NCBI GenBank assembly: GCA_963726615.1
Contig: CAVSCX010000015.1
Location: forward strand, 13,822-77,821
Length of the DNA: 64,000 nucleotides
Reading direction: 5' to 3'
Source: an uncultured Actinomycetota bacterium
Lineage (GTDB): Bacteria > Actinomycetota > Actinomycetes > JACCUZ01
This document shows positions 23,358 to 50,769 of this stretch, piece by piece. Each line of letters starts with the position of its first letter. The first letter of the stretch is position 1. Under the pieces are notes generated by a model. The model made no database searches and was not told the DNA's origin. It worked only from the letters and a program-made list of their open reading frames with translations. Position numbers and translations under genes: made by a program.

Positions 23358-23441
23358 GTGCCCCCGGTGGGATTCGAACCCACGATGGCGTTTCCGCGCC
23401 GGATTAAAAGTCCGGAGTCATCGGCCGCTAGACGACAGGGG
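23358..23441 (-). tRNA. tRNA-like gene, anticodon UUU (Lys) by manual folding, atypical 84 nt with a 15-nt variable arm
   Basis: Minus-strand sequence GCCCCTG-TC-GTCTAGCGGCCGATGAC-T-CCGGA-CTTTTAA-TCCGG-CGCGGAAACGCCATC-GTGGG-TTCGAAT-CCCAC-CGGGGGC-A. 7-bp acceptor, canonical T-arm, anticodon loop C-U-UUU-A-A. Confidence 0.6.
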
Positions 23442-23517
23442 CGGGCGCGGGTCGAGCCTCCGTCGAGGCACCCTGGAGAGACCTTCCGGATGAACCCGCC
23501 GCGAACACGCGGACAGG

Positions 23518-28678: not shown

Positions 28679-29293
28679 GTGCGTTTCAGCCCACGCAACA
28701 ACGCCTTCTACGCGATGTTCGCCACGTCTGGGCAGAACCTGGTCGTCGGCGCCGGGCTGCTCAAGGAGCTGCTCGGCGCCGACCCGGCCGACCGCAAGGC
28801 GATCGCCGAGAAGATGCGGGCCGCCGAGCACGCCGGTGACGAGGCCACCCACGCCATCATGCGCGAGCTGAACGAGACGTTCATCACGCCGTTCGACCGG
28901 GAGGACATCTACCGTCTGGCCTCCAGCCTCGACGACGTCATGGACGCCATGGAGGCTGCTGTCGACCTGGTCGTCCTCTACCAGATCGGCGAGCTGCCGA
29001 TGGAGATCGCCGACCAGGTCGAGGTGCTGGAGCGGGCTGCGGAGCTGACCGCCGAGGCGATGCCGCGGCTGCGGTCGATGAAGGACCTCACCGAGTTCTG
29101 GATCGAGCTCAACCGGCTCGAGAACCAGGCCGACCAGGTCTACCGGCGGCTGCTGGCCCGGCTGTTCAACGGCGACTACGACGCGCTGACCGTGCTCAAG
29201 CTCAAGGAGGTCGTCGACCAGCTCGAGGCTGCCGCCGACGCGTTCGAGCACGTCGCGAACACCGTCGAGACGATCGCGGTCAAGGAGTCCTGA
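28679..29293 (+). CDS. DUF47 (PhoU-like) protein, companion of PiT transporter
   Basis: GTG start. MRFSPRNNAFYAMF...HAIMRELNETFITPFDREDIYRLASSLDDVMD typical DUF47/YkaA. Confidence 0.85.
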   Translation: MRFSPRNNAFYAMFATSGQNLVVGAGLLKELLGADPADRKAIAEKMRAAEHAGDEATHAIMRELNETFITPFDREDIYRLASSLDDVMDAMEAAVDLVVLYQIGELPMEIADQVEVLERAAELTAEAMPRLRSMKDLTEFWIELNRLENQADQVYRRLLARLFNGDYDALTVLKLKEVVDQLEAAADAFEHVANTVETIAVKES

Positions 29294-43900: not shown

Positions 43901-44392
43901 GTGGAGATCCGCGCGGACATGCCGCTCCAGCTGGTCCCGGTGTCGTGGCTGCTCGGCACCTGGCGGGGTGTGGGCGTCGGCGGCTACCCGACCGTGCCGG
44001 AGTTCCGGTTCAGCCAGGAGGTCACCTTCACCGAGCTGCCCGGCAAGCCGTTCGTCCACCACCTGAGCCGAAGCTGGCTGCTCGACGACGACGGCACTGA
44101 GGTGCGCCCGCTCGCCCAGGAGACCGGGTACTGGCGCCCCGAGGCCGACGGCAGCCTGGAGGTCCTGCTCGCGCACCCGACCGGGTTCGTCGAGATCTGG
44201 GTGGGCACCGCCGACGGGGCGAAGGTCGAGCTGAGCACCGACGCCGTCGCCCGGACGGCGACCGCCAAGGACTACACGGCCGGCCACCGGTTGTACGGGC
44301 TGGTCAAGGGCGACCTGCTGTGGGCCTATGACATGGCGGCCATGGGCCAGCCGCTGCAGCCGCACCTGTCCGCCACCCTGACGAGGGTCTGA
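43901..44392 (+). CDS. FABP/nitrobindin-like beta-barrel protein (DUF1794, UPF0678)
   Basis: ...LQLVPVSWLLGTWRGVGVGGYPTV...GYWRPEADGSLEVLLAHPTGFVEIWVG... Confidence 0.7.
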   Translation: MEIRADMPLQLVPVSWLLGTWRGVGVGGYPTVPEFRFSQEVTFTELPGKPFVHHLSRSWLLDDDGTEVRPLAQETGYWRPEADGSLEVLLAHPTGFVEIWVGTADGAKVELSTDAVARTATAKDYTAGHRLYGLVKGDLLWAYDMAAMGQPLQPHLSATLTRV

Positions 44393-44393
44393 C

Positions 44394-44810
44394 GTGGCCG
44401 CCCAGGACCTGCCCGCGACCCTGCGCGCCAAGGGGTACCGGATCACGCCGCAGCGTCAGCTCGTGCTCGACGCCGTCACCGCCCTCGAGCACGGCACACC
44501 GGACGAGATCTGCGCGCAGGTGCAGCGCACCGCGACCGGCGTCAACCTCTCGACGGTCTACCGCACCCTCGAGCTGCTCGAGGAGCTCGGCCTGGTCACC
44601 CACACCCATCTCGGCCACGGCGCGCCGACCTACCACGCGGCCGGCGACATCGACCACCTGCACCTGGTCTGCCGCGACTGCGGCGAGATCATCGAGACCG
44701 ACGTCGCCCTCGCGGACTCGCTGGTGGGAATGTTGGCCGACCAGCATGGCTTCCAGACAGACGTGGCTCACTTCGCGATCTACGGCCGCTGTCGGGGGTG
44801 CGCGACATGA
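44394..44810 (+). CDS. Fur-family transcriptional regulator (Zur/FurB-like)
   Basis: GYRITPQRQLVLDAV...HTHLGHGAPTYH...HLHLVCRDCGEIIE...GRCRGC with metal-binding HxH and CxxC motifs. Confidence 0.85.
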   Translation: MAAQDLPATLRAKGYRITPQRQLVLDAVTALEHGTPDEICAQVQRTATGVNLSTVYRTLELLEELGLVTHTHLGHGAPTYHAAGDIDHLHLVCRDCGEIIETDVALADSLVGMLADQHGFQTDVAHFAIYGRCRGCAT

Positions 44811-45736
44811 CGAGCCCGCTTCTCTCCCGGCCCGGTGCCGTCGAGGCCGACCCGCCCGACGCCGGTGTGGCGGCCCACTACGGCGACCCGTTCCGCGAGC
44901 AGCGCGCGCTGGTCGACGGTGAGGCGTCGGTCGACCTCTCGCACCGGCCGGTCGTCCGCGTCGCCGGCCCGGACCGCCTGACGTGGCTGCACTCCCTCAC
45001 CTCCCAGCACCTGGAGGCGCTCACGCCGGGCACGGCGACCGAGGCCCTGCTGCTCTCGCCGCACGGTCACGTCGAGCACGACCTGCACCTCGTCGACGAC
45101 GGGTCGGCGGTCTGGCTGCACGTCGAGCCGGGCACCGCCGAGGCACTGGTGGGCTGGCTGGACTCGATGCGCTTCTGGTCCCAGGTGGAGGTCGAGAACC
45201 TCTGCGCGTCGTACGCCGTCGTACACCGCCCGACCGCGGTCGAGGGCGTCCCGAGCCGGCTCGTCCCGCACGGTGTCGAGTCGTTCGTCGACCGGGCCGA
45301 CCTGGAGGCCGCCCTGGCGGGGCCGGTCGCCGGAGTGTGGGCGCTCGAGGCGCTGCGGGTCGCCGACGGCCGGCCGCGGTTCGGCCTGGAGACCGACCAT
45401 CGCACGATCCCGCACGAGGTCGGCTGGATCGAGACGGCGGTACACCTGGACAAGGGCTGCTACCGGGGCCAGGAGACCGTCGCACGGGTGGCCAACCTCG
45501 GCCGGCCGCCGCGCCGGCTGGTGCTGCTGCACCTGGACGGCAGCGAGTCGGTGCTGCCCGGACACGGTGACCCGGTGCTGCTCGGGGACCGCCAGGTCGG
45601 GACTGTCACCTCCTCGGCCCGCCACTACGAGCTCGGCCCGGTCGCGCTGGCCGTGGTCAAGCGGTCCACGCCGGCCGACGCACCGCTCGTCGCCGGCGGG
45701 GTGGCCGCCGCCCAGGAGGTCCTCGTCCCGGCCTGA
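44807..45736 (+). CDS. ygfZ: YgfZ/CAF17-family folate-binding Fe-S cluster repair protein (GcvT-like fold)
   Basis: ATGA overlap with fur. ...AHYGDPFREQRALVDG...LDKGCYRGQETVARV conserved K-G-C-Y-x-GQE motif. Confidence 0.8.
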   Translation: MTSPLLSRPGAVEADPPDAGVAAHYGDPFREQRALVDGEASVDLSHRPVVRVAGPDRLTWLHSLTSQHLEALTPGTATEALLLSPHGHVEHDLHLVDDGSAVWLHVEPGTAEALVGWLDSMRFWSQVEVENLCASYAVVHRPTAVEGVPSRLVPHGVESFVDRADLEAALAGPVAGVWALEALRVADGRPRFGLETDHRTIPHEVGWIETAVHLDKGCYRGQETVARVANLGRPPRRLVLLHLDGSESVLPGHGDPVLLGDRQVGTVTSSARHYELGPVALAVVKRSTPADAPLVAGGVAAAQEVLVPA

Positions 45737-45758
45737 CGAGCCGGGCCTGGTCGGGGGA

Positions 45759-46193
45759 TCAGACCTCGAGGAGCAGGGTCACCGGGCCGTCGTTGACGAG
45801 GGACAGCTGCATGTCGGCCCCGAAGCGGCCGGTCTCGACCCTCGCTCCGCGCTCGCGCAGCACCGTGACGAGGTGTGCCACCAGCGGTTCGGCGACGGGG
45901 CCGGGGGCCGCGGCGTTCCAGGTCGGGCGCCGGCCCTTGCGGGTGTCGCCGTACAGCGTGAACTGGCTGACCACGAGCAGCGGGGCGCCTACCTCGGCCG
46001 CGGACCGCTCGTCGTCGAGGATGCGCAGCTCGTGCACCTTCACGGCGAGCCGTGCGGCCTTCTCTTCGGTGTCGTCGTGGGTCACGCCGACGAGGACGCA
46101 GAGCCCCTGCCCGGAGCCGTCCCCGATCCGGCTGACGACCTCGCCGCCGACGGTGACGAAGGCCTCGCGGACCCGTTGGACCAGAGCGCGCAT
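45759..46193 (-). CDS. dtd: D-aminoacyl-tRNA deacylase
   Basis: MRALVQRV...[29 protein letters not shown]...[20 protein letters not shown]. 144 aa from ATG at 46193. Confidence 0.85.
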
Positions 46194-46575
46194 CAGGCCA
46201 TGATCGCCGACCGCGCCAGGGAGGTCGTCAGCCGCGCCCGAACAGACCCTTGCGCTTCTTCTTGTCGGCACCGGGGGGTGGCGCCGACCTCGGAGCGGCG
46301 GGGCCGGAGGACTCCTCCGGACCGTCGTCCAGGCCGAAGCCGAGGCTGGAGAGCTCGCGCAGCAGCATCGCGGTGTCCGCCTGGTCGCGGGCAACCATCG
46401 GCTCGGGGCGGTCGTCGACCTCCTTGGCCTCGGGCTCCGGCTTCGCCGTCTCGACGGGCTTCTCCGGCACCACGGCGGGCGTCGGCTCCACCGGTGCGTT
46501 GCGGGTGAGCTCGGTCAGCATGTTCGCCGCCGCCCGCGGGCCGGCGTTGTCCCGGTGGACGGCGGCTGGGGCCCG

Positions 46576-46940
46576 CTCGGCCTCCGCTGCGTCGGCGGCG
46601 GCCTGCTCGGCGGCGACCCGCTCGGCCTCCGCTGCGTCGGCGGCGGCCTGCTCGGCGGCGACCCGCTCGGCCTCCGCTGCGTCGGCGGCGGCCTGCTCGG
46701 CGGCGACCCGCTCGGCCTCCGCTGCGTCGGCGGCGGCCTGCTCGGCGGCGACCCGCTCGGCCTCCGCTGCTCGGCGGCGGCCTGCTCGGCGGCGGCCTGC
46801 TCGGCGGCGGCCTGCTCGGCGGCGGCCTGGTCGGCGGCGACCCGCTCGGCCTCGGCGGCGGCCTGGTCGGCGGCGACCCGCTCGGCTTCGGCGGCGGCCT
46901 GCTCGGCGGCGACCCGCTCGGCCGCGGCGGCCTCCGCCTC
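46576..46940. repeat. 45-bp tandem repeat array (4 perfect copies 46576-46755, then degenerate copies)
   Basis: Unit ctcggcctccgctgcgtcggcggcggcctgctcggcggcgacccg x4. The 5th copy lacks one G. Confidence 0.8.
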
Positions 46941-47199
46941 AGCAGCCTGCTCCGCCGCGATCCGCTCGGCCTCCGCCGCCGCGATCGCCTCGGCCGCCTC
47001 GGCCGCGAGCCGGTCGGCCTCCTCGCGCTCACGTCGTGCGGCCTCGCGCCGGGCGATCCGCTCGGCCTCCTTGCGGGCCGCGGTCTCCTCGGCCTTGCGG
47101 GAACGGCGCGCAGCCTCCTCGGCCAGCTCCCGCTCGGCCTGCTCGCGGGCAGCCCGAAGCTCGGCCTCGCGGGCCGCCTCCTCGGCGGCGCGCTCGGCG

Positions 47200-47772
47200 G
47201 ACCAGGCGGCATGGTCGGCCCAGGCAGCCTCTTCGGCATCGGCCCGCTGGGCCGTCAGCCAGGCCCCGTGCTCGGCCCAGGCGGTCTCCTCGGCGGCGGC
47301 CCGCTGCGCCGCCAGCCAGGCGGTGTGATCGGCCCACGCGGTCTCCTCCGCTGCCGCGCGCTCGGCGGCAAGGGCGGCCCGGGCGTCGAGCCACGCGGTG
47401 TGGTCGGCCCAGGCGGACTCTTCGGCGGCGGCGCGCTCGCCCTCGAGCCAGGCAGCGTGGTCGGCCCAGGCGGTCTCCTCGGCGGCGGCGCGCTCGCCCT
47501 CGAGCCAGGCAGCGTGGTCGGACCAGGCGGTCTCCTCGGCGCCGGCCCGCTGGGCCGCCAGCCAGGTGGCGTGCTCGGCCCAGGCGGTCTCCTCGGCGTC
47601 GGCCCGCTGGGCCGCCAGCCAGGTCGCGTGCTCGGCCCAGGCGGTCTGCTCGGCAGCGGCCCGCTCGCCCTCGAGCCAGGCAGTGTGGTCGGCCCAGGCG
47701 GTCTCCTCGGCGCCGGCCCGCTGGGCCGCCAGCCAGGTGGCGTGGTCGGCCCAGGCGGTCTCCTCGGCCTCG
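47200..47772. repeat. 57-bp tandem repeat array, about 10 copies, two alternating subtypes
   Basis: Unit ggcccaggcggtctcctcggcggcggcgcgctcgccctcgagccaggcagcgtggtc with variants. Encodes the 19-aa W-containing protein repeats. Confidence 0.8.
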
Positions 47773-49348
47773 AGCCGCTCGGCGGCCTCGCGCTCGCGAC
47801 GGTCGCGGTCCTCCGCCTCCCGTGCCTCGGCCGCAGCCGCCTCGGCGGCGGCCTTCTCCTCCTCCTTGGCCAGGCGGCGGGCCTCGGCGCGCTCGGCGCG
47901 CGATGCCGCTTCCTTCTGTGCGAGCGCCTCCAGCTCCCGGTGCAGGATCTCCGCCTCTTCCAGGCGCTTCCTCTCGGAGGAGACCCGGACCCGCTCTGCC
48001 TCCCGGGCGGCGTCCTCCTCGGCCAGCCGGGCTGCCTCACCCGCCGCCACCCGCTCTGCTGCGCGACGACCGGTCTCCTCGGCCGCAGCCTGCTCGACGG
48101 CCAACATCTCGGCGGCCTGACGTCGGGCCTTCTCGGCCTTCTCGGCCTGCTCGGCCGCTGCCTGCTCGGCCGCTGCCTGCTCGGCCGCTGCGGTGTCCTG
48201 CTCCGCGGTGTCCTCGAGGTCGGCCACGGCGACGACCGGCAGCACCAGCTCGGGCCCGGCCGCGTCGACCGGCTCCAGCTCGTCCAGCGTGTCCAGCTCG
48301 AGCACCAGCTCCTCGACCGTCGCCTCGTCCGCCAGGGCGGTGGCAGCGCCGCCGTCCTGTGCGGCCGGGACTGCAGCGTCCCTGTCGTCCTCGCCGTCCT
48401 CGGCGCCGGGGCCGTCGACGCCGACGAGCCCGGCTTCGACAAGCCGCATGACGACCTGGCCGGCCTCGAACAGCGTGAACCCGCACTCGACAGCCAGCTC
48501 GGCGACGTCCCGGGTCCCGTCGACCTTGCACAGGAGGGCCCACTCGTTCGGGCCCAGAGCGACCTCGTCGGAGGGAGACGCGGCGTCCAGCATCGGTACC
48601 GCGGCAGGCCCCCCGGTGGCGGCGACGATGGTCTCCCACGTGGTGGCCCGCTCGCGCAGGTCGTCCAGCAGCACCGCGACGGGCGCGGGCGGGGCGACGT
48701 CCTGGCGGGTCTTCTTGTTCTTGCGGAACTTCCAGGCGGCGACCGGCCAGCCCAGCAGGTCGGTGAGTCCGTCCTTGAGCTGCTCGACGACGAACTCCTC
48801 GACCACGGAGACCTCGACGTAGCCCAGGTGCACGAGCAGCTCGCCCAGCCGCCAGCCCTGCAGCTCGGTGCGCTGGATCTCCAGCGCCTCGGCGAGTGCC
48901 TCAGGGGTCAGGGCGCCGCGGGACATCAGCCGGACACCGAGCAGGACCCGGCGGCCGGGGACGCTGACGGCGTAGACCTGACCGTCGCGCAGGTAGACCT
49001 CGGCCTCGTCGCCCTCCTGGTCGCGGACGAGGAGGCAGCCGGTGGCCCGCGAGTCGGCCAGGTCGCGCAGCACGGACTCGACGGTGTGGGTGAGGAGGGC
49101 ACCCTCAGGCACGAGCTGCCTCCCTTCCCCGAGTTGTGGACGTGCCGGGCCGGACCACGCGTCGCTCCGCTCTCGCGGCGGTCGCCCGGTCCCTGATCGC
49201 ATCGGCAGGACCGGCCGGAGTGTTGAGTGCGGTTCGCGCACCAATGTGCGGTACAACCGGCTCCCGCCGACCCTCTGCGCGCGCGAGGCCCGGCGCGGTT
49301 CGCCTGAGTCCGCTCCGGCGCCGCCTCCGGACGTGACACGATGCTCCG

Positions 49349-50221
49349 GTGGCACCGTCGCCTGCACCTCCCCGCACGCTGATCACGGTCGCGCCCACCG
49401 GGGCCGAGACCGCGAAGTCCGACGCGCCTGCCCTGCCCGTCACCCTCGACGAGCTGGTCTCCGCCGCCAAGGCCTGCGAGGCGGCCGGCGCCGCCATGGT
49501 GCACGTGCACATCCGCGACGACGAGGGCCGCCCGACCCTCGACCTGGGCCGCCTCCGGGCGACCGTCCAGGCCCTGCGCGAGTCCACGTCGCTCGTCGTC
49601 CAGCTCAGCACCGGCGGTGCGGTGACCGACCCGCTGGACGCGCGGCTTCGGGTCCTCGAGGCCGAGCCCGACTCGTGCTCGCTGACCTGCGGCACCACGA
49701 ACTTCGGCGACGACGTCTTCCTCAACCCGTGGCCGTTCATGGCCGACCTCTTCCAGCGCAGCCAGGCGGCCGAGGTGGTCCCCGAGTTCGAGCTGTTCGA
49801 CCTCGGGCACGTCGCCTCGCTGCACCGCCTGCTCGACACCTACGGGGCGCCGTACGGCGGGCAGGTGCACTGCGACCTGGTGATGGGCGTGCCCGGTGGG
49901 ATGCCGGGCACGGCGGCGGCCCTCGTGGCCGCGGTCGCAGCACTGCCGGCCGGGTGCTCGTGGAGCGCCACCGGCATCGGCCGGACCTCGCTGGCCGTGG
50001 CCCTCGCGGCGCTGTCGGCCGGCGGGCACCTGCGGGTCGGCATGGAGGACACCTTGACCTTCGCCCGGGGCCGCCCGGTCACCGGCAACGAGGAGCTCGT
50101 CGCGCGAGCGGCCCAGCTCGCGGAGCTGGCCCAGCGACCGCCCATGAGCACCGACGAGGCGCGCGCCCTGCTGCGCGTCAAGGACCGAACGACACCCGAG
50201 AGCACGGGGGAGCCCCGATGA
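49349..50221 (+). CDS. 3-keto-5-aminohexanoate cleavage enzyme family protein (BKACE/DUF849)
   Basis: ...[14 protein letters not shown]...[16 protein letters not shown]...FELFDLGHV... characteristic of BKACE TIM-barrel enzymes. Confidence 0.8.
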
Positions 50222-50769
50222 CGACCAGCCACGAGCCCTACCCCAACGGTCGGCGCCGGATCGACAAGGTGCTCGCCGAGGACTTCGCCGCAGATGTCGG
50301 CGGTCTCGACCTCGACGAGCTCCGGTCCCGCCGTCGGGAGGCCGAGCAGGAGGAGGCGGACCTCTCCTACGTCCGCAGGATGCTGCAGGGCCGGATGGAC
50401 ATCCTGCGCGCCGAGCTGGCCCGCCGGGCCGGGGGCGGCGACAAGATCGTCGAGCACCTCTCCGCGGTGCTGGCCGACTCCGCCCGCAGCGACCACGGAC
50501 TCGGCAGGTTCCTGCGGGTCGAGCCGTCCCGGGTCGACGAGCACCGCCGGCTGGTGGAACAGGTCATCGCCGACGTCGGCGTCTCCGACGTCGAGGGCCG
50601 CTCCGACGACGACCTGCGCGCGGCCCTCGGGCGCCTCGAGAAGTTCGAGCACGGCGTCTCCGAGGACCGGCGTGCCGTCCAGTCCGTGATGGACGCCCTC
50701 ACGGCCGAGGTCGCGGCGCGCTACAAGAGCGGCAGTGCGACGGTGGACGACCTGCTCGCGGAGCGCTAG
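50218..50769 (+). CDS. RsiG-like c-di-GMP-binding anti-sigma factor homologue
   Basis: ATGA overlap with the BKACE gene. 183 aa. Two exact E(X)3S(X)2R(X)3Q(X)3D motifs: residues 46-61 EADLSYVRRMLQGRMD and 144-159 EHGVSEDRRAVQSVMD, on predicted helices. Confidence 0.7.
   Translation: MTTSHEPYPNGRRRIDKVLAEDFAADVGGLDLDELRSRRREAEQEEADLSYVRRMLQGRMDILRAELARRAGGGDKIVEHLSAVLADSARSDHGLGRFLRVEPSRVDEHRRLVEQVIADVGVSDVEGRSDDDLRAALGRLEKFEHGVSEDRRAVQSVMDALTAEVAARYKSGSATVDDLLAER

Follow-up and report, generated by a model that had tools for sequence, protein, structure and literature searches.

The PATAN head of cyanobacterial regulators binds the PilB/PilC pilus motor and suffices for motility switching; the PATAN domain of PixE binds PilB1 and PilC and is membrane-localised (bioRxiv 10.1101/2021.06.11.447907). 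A similarity between the N-termini of GspE/PilB ATPases and a two-hairpin helical insertion in this domain, the alpha-clip, has been noted (Makarova 2006, in the summary given in bioRxiv 10.1101/2021.06.11.447907). Here we describe a gene that encodes such a PATAN module at the head of a long helical rod. It is located on the minus strand of a 64,000-nucleotide stretch (the window) of contig CAVSCX010000015.1 from an uncultured Actinomycetota bacterium (assembly GCA_963726615.1, positions 13,822 to 77,821), near a homolog of rsiG, the gene for the anti-sigma factor of WhiG that depends on cyclic di-GMP (c-di-GMP). We propose, with a probability of roughly 0.55, that its product is a membrane-tethered rod or scaffold protein of about 960-970 amino acids (aa) that belongs to the WhiG regulon, possibly responds to c-di-GMP and is intact in nature.

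The protein shares with the PatA-type PATAN regulators of cyanobacteria (PatA, PixE, PixG, LsiR) the two-hairpin alpha-clip insertion and the size of the PATAN module, about 235-260 aa (the PixE PATAN construct comprises residues 1-258). In those regulators, however, the PATAN domain is followed by a receiver (REC) domain, whereas here it is followed by a linker, a helical rod of at least 470 residues and a basic C-terminus; a REC domain was not matched by Pfam anywhere in the protein at E<=0.01. The PatA-type regulators are cyanobacterial, while the rod protein comes from an actinomycete and its gene lies behind a putative sigma-28/WhiG-type promoter. The logic of a small signalling head on a long helical rod also recalls FrzS and AglZ of Myxococcus xanthus and the PATAN protein SgnC, although we do not claim membership in these groups. 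FrzS and AglZ, which combine a receiver-like head with a long coiled coil, are polar motility regulators. Compared with them, the rod protein has PATAN instead of REC as its head, its rod is not heptad-based, and it carries a conserved C-terminal peptide and a basic tail. PATAN proteins such as SgnC have been linked to type IV pilus motility (bioRxiv 10.1101/2021.06.11.447907).

The gene and its start are defined by the following features, of which the longest open reading frame (ORF) was taken from the ORF list.

46228..49112, minus strand: whole gene of the PATAN rod protein; as assembled, 865 aa with a stop at 46515 and an 85-aa out-of-frame tail
46515..49367, minus strand: longest ORF
49112, minus strand: GTG, probable start codon, 6 nt after GGGAGG
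49119..49124, minus strand: Shine-Dalgarno sequence GGGAGG, read from the sequence; the GGAGG block is kept in the upstream alignment

With one base restored, the window sequence encodes 961 aa and the gene ends at 46228. The start matching GTG 49112 was also picked by the gene caller on a sibling contig (ENA ERZ25039476 contig_5952, 1.07 Mb), which shares 99.6% identity with the window across 10.4 kb.

The N-terminal module: a PATAN fold with an MshEN-like insertion

48408..49112, minus strand: folded N-module, aa 1-235; PATAN beta-core carrying a helical insertion, long helix, winged-helix-like three-helix subdomain
48780..48950, minus strand: alpha-clip or MshEN-like four-helix insertion, aa 55-111 (NF053729, phmmer, Foldseek, conservation)

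A preliminary description of this locus, made from the sequence alone, had assigned a DUF4388 domain to the N-terminus. The profile search agrees: Pfam PF14332 (DUF4388, now PatA_N, that is, PATAN) matches aa 4-159 with 44.1 bits at a cutoff of 25, and the match covers profile positions 2-121 of 122. For aa 1-243, AlphaFold2 with 49 homologues yielded a model that has a predicted local distance difference test (pLDDT) value of 90.9 and a predicted template modelling (pTM) score of 0.85. Its beta-core consists of strands 25-31, 36-42, 45-50 and 124-130 and is interrupted between the latter two by four helices (58-64, 70-82, 89-95 and 101-120); after the core come a long helix at 145-166 and, at 188-226, a winged-helix-like unit of three helices. 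As modelled, the four-helix insertion is the alpha-clip known from PATAN domains.

The same insertion resembles the c-di-GMP-binding MshEN domain. NCBIfam NF053729 (c-di-GMP_motif, described as 'cyclic di-GMP-binding domain, MshE-related') has a cutoff of 38 bits; the isolated N-module reaches 38.9 bits and the 961-aa protein 37.5 bits. All of the 50 family members tested match this model (E<=1e-3). A phmmer search against PDB sequences aligned residues 303-362 of Thermus thermophilus PilF, at the start of GSPII-C, to aa 56-115 without gaps (E=2e-6), and also returned Vibrio cholerae MshE (5HTL) at E=0.1. By Foldseek, the N-module model was superposed on 5htl_A, MshE with c-di-GMP, over 60 columns with a root-mean-square deviation of 1.6 Å, 32% identity and a probability of 1.00.

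As the criterion for MshEN we used two tandem 24-residue motifs, RLGxx(L/V/I)(L/V/I)xxG(L/V/I)(L/V/I)xxxxLxxxLxxQ, separated by a 5-residue spacer. Motif II (R88-Q111) fits this pattern at every position, with V replacing L at positions 17 and 21. The residues of MshEN that contact the ligand are the L, the G, those of LxxxLxxQ, both Gln and the Arg of motif II (PMC5013675), and over 223 homologues the ligand-contacting positions are conserved at 80-98%: L58 at 95%, G59 at 98%, Q80 at 97%, R88 at 87%, G90 at 94% and Q111 at 81-94%. The likeness to the MshEN and GSPII domains (MshE 5HTL; PilF GSPII-B and GSPII-C) consists in the four-helix bundle of two tandem 24-residue motifs, the retained pair of motif-final Gln and the Gly turns, and the full motif II. 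The differences are that the rod protein lacks the Arg of motif I, that its spacer has 7 residues versus 5, and that its bundle is inserted in a PATAN beta-core, while in MshE and PilF the bundle precedes the MshEN C-subdomain and the ATPase. From these motifs and the model, we predict with even odds that the N-module binds c-di-GMP, and we regard this as a lead.

A conserved putative WhiG-type promoter

49199..49227, minus strand: putative sigma-28/WhiG-type promoter CTCAACACTCCGGCCGGTCCTGCCGATGC, ~90-115 nt upstream of the start codon (pattern search, footprint)

According to the published criterion, members of the WhiG regulon have T(A/C)AA-N16-GCCGA at most 200 bp from the start codon; the consensus forms are T(A/C)AA-N16-GCCGATAA for WhiG2 and CTCA-N16-17-GCCGAACT for WhiG1 (PMC12871210). 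The putative promoter of the rod gene has CTCAACA as the -35 element (49227-49221) and TGCCGATGC as the -10 element (49207-49199), and the sequence TCAA-N16-GCCGA at 49226-49202 on the minus strand fits both published forms. The TCAAC and GCCGA blocks are found with constant spacing in 40 of 40 orthologous loci, whereas the 14 bases between them vary freely. The only invariant blocks in the alignment of 14 upstream sequences are CTCAACA and TGCCGA, plus a single G in the Shine-Dalgarno region. Variants of the promoter are present across the distant loci L044-L050, for example TCAATG..GCCGAG in L045, a form with N17 spacing and GTCGATGC in L046, and TCAAGA..GCCGATCA in L047, a locus without rsiG.

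The pattern search in the window gave four matches versus 0.2 expected, the three others lying in coding sequence. A match inside the neighbouring BKACE gene, TCAA-N16-GCCGA at 49722-49746 on the plus strand, was used as a negative control and is conserved in 2 of 37 loci. It lies ~470 nt upstream of rsiG, and as a candidate rsiG promoter it was rejected as a probable chance match on account of this low conservation. Further pattern matches were observed in coding runs at 29109 (plus strand) and 58342 (minus strand).

Taken together, the pattern and its conservation suggest that the promoter is probably WhiG-dependent (sigma-28 type). Neither this promoter nor the MshEN-like insertion had been noted in the preliminary description. 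With respect to the RsiG-WhiG regulon (Gallagher 2020; Schumacher 2021; bioRxiv 2026.01.14.699351), the gene has a promoter of the regulon pattern and adjoins rsiG. In Streptomyces venezuelae the known WhiG targets are whiH, whiI and vnz_15005 only. The text of the WhiG-regulon papers, supplementary tables aside, makes no mention of the PATAN rod family, which could be among the 131 unnamed clusters of the 2026 WhiG-regulon preprint.

A conserved C-terminus behind a variable rod

46336..46407, minus strand: conserved C-terminal peptide, containing LLRELSSLG; near-invariant in 18 intact orthologues
46231..46263, minus strand: polybasic-hydrophobic tail, 11 residues, at the very C-terminus (charge, conservation)
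48192..48398, minus strand: acidic disordered linker, aa 239-307; net charge -21, AlphaFold2 pLDDT <50 for 243-307
46570..48191, minus strand: Ala/Glu/Arg-rich helical rod, aa 308-~860 (composition, AlphaFold2)
47178..47768, minus strand: ten 19-aa (57-bp) repeats, E-x-x-A-W-x-[DE]-H-x-x-W-L-x3-R (Tandem Repeats Finder, TRF; W spacing 6/13)
46572..46976, minus strand: 45-bp / 15-bp Ala-Glu array, AAEAERVAA[ED]QAAA[ED] (TRF period 45, 9.4 copies, score 505)

The last 21 aa carry a net charge of +6, while that of the whole protein is about -108. In close orthologues a P-x-P-[ML]-V-x-R-D-[QH]... peptide, a Pro-rich spacer and the basic tail are near-invariant, and the pattern [LF][LM]RELSSLG ... 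polybasic-G[LIF]F can be traced to orthologues with about 40% identity in the N-module. When the C-terminal 90 aa were used to search the library, the only matches were short fragments from this family and the 97-aa ORF of the window (P0277). In MinD, a basic-amphipathic end tethers the protein to the membrane. By analogy with such MinD-type ends, the basic tail may tether the rod protein to the membrane, a proposal to which we give equal chances of being right or wrong. The likeness to the membrane-targeting ends of MinD and FtsA is a short terminal basic cluster, followed here by G-L-F-G; the tail has only 11 residues with two hydrophobic side chains, and the comparison is an analogy only.

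The preliminary description had listed an acidic linker, ten W-containing repeats and AE-rich repeats, all of which were recovered by composition, by W spacing and by TRF. The rod contains 40% Ala, 20% Glu and 11% Arg; 36% of its residues are charged, its net charge is -67, and bulky hydrophobics amount to 10%. In the AlphaFold2 model of aa 1-780 it forms one unbroken helix from residue 308 to the end of the construct at 779, with pLDDT 60-85. Fourier power at 3.5-3.6 residues is about zero in the W-repeat region, where the strongest period is 6.3 = 19/3. Owing to the small number of bulky hydrophobics and the lack of a 3.5-residue periodicity, the rod is not a canonical heptad coiled coil, and the earlier suggestion of a coiled-coil, cytoskeletal protein does not hold for it. 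Its character is closer to that of a long acidic single helix or an Ala-rich rod.

The W-x5-W pairs follow a strict 19-aa period from positions 454/460 to 631/637; the unit consensus is EETAWADHA(A/T)WL..RA.A, and TRF found the 57-bp array with 88% matches and a score of 528. The 45-bp array includes four exactly identical units at 46770-46591. The repeat region occurs in orthologues as well as in the sibling contig; its absence from related strains would, according to the preliminary description, have pointed to an assembly artefact. The comparison of repeat numbers across orthologues gave between 0 and 9 W-x5-W copies; forms of 550-586 aa and a form of 357 aa have no W repeats. The 19-aa period motif [ED]-x-x-A-W-x-x-H-x-x-W-L-x3-R recurs at the protein level in orthologues with diverged repeats, for example as EELAWHDHGVWL, EAWVSHALWL and DAWEEHAAWL. 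Since both motif and period are kept where the repeats have diverged, the W repeat is more than a recent DNA duplication, and sequence comparison indicates that the W/H motif is under selection where present. Searching the library with the W-repeat region brought up no more than two fragments, since Ala/Glu words filled the candidate list. The total length of orthologues ranges from 357 to 1114 aa, with a rod and repeat content of about 0 to more than 500 residues; the rod is a variable module.

The frame break and its occurrence in related assemblies

46766..46771, minus strand: 1-nt gap breaking the frame; GCCGCCGA^GCAGCGG here, GCCGCCGACGCAGCGG in the other 45-bp units

Upstream of ~46770 the frame reads ...AAEQAAAEQ; the 45-bp unit is then read four times out of frame until the stop at 46515. 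When one base is inserted before 46770, the four units are in frame, no stop is encountered, and the frame joins the 97-aa ORF that extends to 46228. The explanation of the break by loss of a single base, offered in the preliminary description, is supported in this way and by the sibling contig, which has one extra base at this site. Likewise, the C-terminus was correctly placed in another frame; in orthologues it is conserved and in frame.

On the sibling contig, the PATAN rod gene is one intact ORF of 968 aa (L043:2060-4966), and the RsiG and Dtd protein sequences are identical to those of the window. The two contigs differ by two indels, the single base at ~46766 and a 21-nt in-frame indel at ~46814, and by substitutions, about a dozen inside the repeats, five in the upstream spacer and one elsewhere in the 10.4 kb. 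The five spacer substitutions cluster in ~90 nt (49272-49363) that comprise the divergent intergenic region and the first BKACE bases; this cluster is located upstream of the WhiG-type promoter.

As orthologues we compared 41 related loci, taken from species-representative genomes. In 18 of them one ORF contains both the N-domain and the C-terminal motif, and L037 is likewise intact. All 12 complete short-read loci are intact, while the broken copies all occur in long-read 'MFD' metagenome-assembled genomes (MAGs) with Flye-style contig names and the ERZ accession series of the sibling. The neighbouring genes (asparaginase II, BKACE, Fur, dtd, nitrobindin and ygfZ) were used as a control for frameshifts: in L001-L040, 18 of 121 were split by frameshifts in the long-read MFD loci versus 0 of 99 in the short-read MAG loci. 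We estimate about 0.3 frameshifts per kb in the MFD loci, which predicts that about half of the genes of 2.9 kb are broken; the observed number of broken copies is about 11 in 18 MFD loci. Single-base frame breaks in the MFD assemblies are mostly consensus errors. Plotting GC content at third codon positions revealed nothing about further frameshifts in the window, the sequence being rich in repeats and of 73-85% GC.

Distribution and gene order

The scan of the representative library with HMMER identified 179 clusters (50% identity) at E<=1e-30 and 817 at E<=1e-10. Among the matches listed, the best ones mostly span aa ~4-235, and the lengths are mostly 400-1100 aa. The labelled members are all MAGs, from Sporichthyaceae, Frankiaceae, Acidothermaceae, 'Mycobacteriales', Nanopelagicales and Motilibacteraceae. 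Most NCBI entries carry the mark 'partial'; a plausible cause is that contigs from short reads break off in the repeats. A literature search for DUF4388 and for PATAN with MshEN found no paper on actinobacterial members or on this architecture. The statement in the preliminary description that the family was not a described one stands for the architecture, whereas the family itself is large and carries the label DUF4388/PatA_N in databases. In other words, the domains are known and the family is database-labelled as DUF4388, and the rod architecture of PATAN proteins is uncharacterised. A protein of 1492 aa in the representative library (P0238) has five separate N-module-like stretches, that is, a multi-PATAN architecture.

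The genes adjacent to the PATAN rod gene in the window are:

49349..50221, plus strand: BKACE-family gene, between the PATAN rod gene and rsiG (Pfam PF05853, 302 bits)
50218..50769, plus strand: rsiG, 183 aa, c-di-GMP-dependent anti-sigma factor of WhiG (Pfam PF22802, 124 bits, two stretches)
45759..46193, minus strand: dtd, D-aminoacyl-tRNA deacylase (PF02580, 162 bits; gene calls on the sibling contig concur)

The dtd neighbour and the divergent RsiG homologue, both named in the preliminary description, were found by these Pfam matches. The BKACE stop and the rsiG start share 4 nt, an overlap suggestive of an operon; the rod gene is divergent from rsiG, with the BKACE gene in between. Inspection by eye showed the two c-di-GMP motifs, E(X)3S(X)2R(X)3Q(X)3D, in RsiG of the window. 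The dtd gene follows 34 nt downstream of the rod gene on the same strand and is possibly co-transcribed with it.

The gene order asparaginase II - rsiG - BKACE <> gene > dtd < ygfZ < fur < nitrobindin is kept in L001-L040 and, without dtd, in L044. In L036 and L045 the gene and rsiG are immediate divergent neighbours, and at ~40% identity (L046) both rsiG and BKACE are still present; rsiG is syntenic in L001-L040 and L044-L046. The subfamily L047-L050, found on 86 blocks of the collection, comprises proteins of 357-640 aa without W repeats that end in FMRELSSLS...RRKRRFW; its genomic position is kept, with no rsiG between asparaginase II and BKACE and with dtd on the opposite strand.

Alternative explanations

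Is the frame break a sequencing error or a feature of this strain? We consider it quite probable that the consensus of the long-read metagenome assembly is wrong at this point, within a perfect 45-bp repeat, in view of the intact sibling, the intact short-read orthologues and the frameshifted neighbours in long-read MAGs. If it were real, the gene would be a pseudogene in this strain or would yield an 865-aa product that ends in a Pro/Ser/Arg-rich nonsense tail and lacks the conserved C-terminal peptide and the basic tail. In favour of a real mutation, and against an intact gene, the deletion lies outside any homopolymer and is, besides the in-frame one, the only indel in the 10.4 kb compared with the sibling; the flanking genes differ by one substitution, so that the window assembly is locally clean and a strain-level mutation is possible. 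Moreover, perfect 45-bp repeats are prone to recombination, and the 21-nt indel adjoins the 1-nt one. Yet the 99.6%-identical sibling and all complete short-read orthologues are intact, the background rate of the MFD loci would by itself break about half of such genes, and the downstream frame is fully open and conserved with no more decay, which makes a real frameshift unlikely. The position of the break inside a tandem repeat might also point to programmed ribosomal frameshifting or repeat-mediated phase variation. This idea was rejected as hardly credible: the repeat units of 15, 45 and 57 bp are all multiples of three, so that slippage of units cannot shift the frame, neither the orthologues nor the sibling contig show a change of frame at the site, and no slippery sequence is evident there in the window. 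As for the term "disrupted" in the preliminary description, it is right for the assembled sequence, but the biological gene is probably not disrupted. Single-base frame breaks being common in ordinary genes of long-read MAGs, pseudogenisation should not be deduced from such a break without the reads.

The rod, with its very long uninterrupted predicted helix and repetitive architecture, might alternatively be a filament-forming cytoskeletal coiled coil of the Scy/FilP/DivIVA kind; several long coiled-coil polarity proteins occur in Actinobacteria. Its composition and periodicity are, however, unlike a canonical heptad or 51-mer core, its variable length suits a spacer better than a lattice, and no Pfam match to DivIVA or intermediate-filament-like families was obtained, so that we find a filament of this kind quite improbable. 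The head presents a closer choice. Instead of binding c-di-GMP, the N-module may be purely a protein-protein head, for instance for a PilB/GspE-type ATPase or another membrane complex, its MshEN likeness reflecting common fold ancestry. Alpha-clips are general in PATAN domains and were described before c-di-GMP binding by MshEN was known (bioRxiv 10.1101/2021.06.11.447907). Several of our own observations also count against a c-di-GMP pocket. Motif I (L57-Q80) fits except at position 1: Arg is expected there, but the residue is L in this protein and Q/L/M/A across the family, and a conserved R55-P56 is located two residues upstream of the start of motif I (223 homologues). The spacer between the motifs (R81-W87) has 7 residues, not 5, the score for NF053729 lies right at its cutoff, and motif II is degenerate in the distant members L045 and L046. 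PilF GSPII-A, moreover, is a close MshEN look-alike lacking c-di-GMP binding (PMC12002112). On the other hand, the ligand contacts known from MshEN are 81-98% conserved over the homologues, and the nearest solved relative by sequence, PilF GSPII-C, binds c-di-GMP with high affinity although one of its motifs also lacks the Arg (PMC12002112); as its alignment with the insertion is gap-free, GSPII-C has the matching 7-residue spacing. We regard a head devoted to protein interactions alone as a serious competitor, at somewhat under even odds. Two points bear on the proposal of a WhiG-regulon protein more generally and speak against it: all homologues found are labelled MAG or metagenome, and L047-L050 keep the gene and the sigma-28-like motif with no rsiG next door, so that the adjacency to rsiG may be inherited synteny and not a functional link.

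Proposed function

RsiG sequesters WhiG at high c-di-GMP; in the mechanism that we propose for a WhiG-controlled, membrane-tethered rod protein, WhiG would be released from RsiG at low c-di-GMP and the PATAN rod gene transcribed. The basic tail would hold the protein at the anionic membrane, and the acidic rod, at most ~70 nm long as one helix, might serve as a spacer or scaffold. The LLRELSSLG peptide and the W/H repeats could recruit partners or mediate self-association, and the PATAN head could read c-di-GMP and/or bind a partner, in analogy with the cyanobacterial PATAN on PilB/PilC. The WhiG/RsiG/c-di-GMP switch may be coupled in this manner to a membrane process such as motility, pili or polarity.

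A more far-reaching version of this proposal, which we hold only tentatively and consider doubtful, is that the family forms an unrecognised actinobacterial class of c-di-GMP effectors with a working MshEN-type pocket in the alpha-clip, made only when WhiG is freed from RsiG, and is part of a feed-forward loop. If this is true, c-di-GMP would first gate synthesis of the protein through RsiG-WhiG and later control its activity at the membrane. In actinomycetes other than streptomycetes, the WhiG switch would then have an output in motility, pili or polarity, and the 19-aa W-x2-H-x2-W-L units would represent a new type of helical binding repeat, displayed on a spacer of up to ~70 nm. PATAN alpha-clip insertions in general may be ligand pockets.

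Actinobacteria possess many c-di-GMP-making enzymes. To our knowledge, lineage-specific actinobacterial effectors of c-di-GMP are few, namely BldD, RsiG and GlgX, and the outputs of WhiG/RsiG known to us outside Streptomyces are mostly predicted. The family is a testable candidate for a missing WhiG/RsiG output and possibly for a missing c-di-GMP effector outside Streptomyces, based on the at-threshold score for the c-di-GMP motif, the putative promoter that is invariant in 40 loci, and the adjacency to rsiG in many lineages.

Other observations in the window

The rod gene is adjoined at 43901-46193 by a conserved block of genes for a nitrobindin (THAP4 haem-binding), a Fur-family regulator, a ygfZ-like folate protein and Dtd. 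We take this block to correspond to the region around nur (SCO4180) and nitrobindin (SCO4179) of Streptomyces coelicolor. SCO4179 is assigned as a nitrobindin in the literature.

Finally, a tRNA of 85 nt with the anticodon UUU (Lys) was found at 23358-23442 on the minus strand by Rfam (55.6 bits) and ARAGORN. Its variable arm is a stem-loop (CGCGGAAACGCC...) like that of class II tRNAs (Leu/Ser/Tyr), which is unusual for tRNA-Lys; it could be a non-canonical or recoding tRNA.

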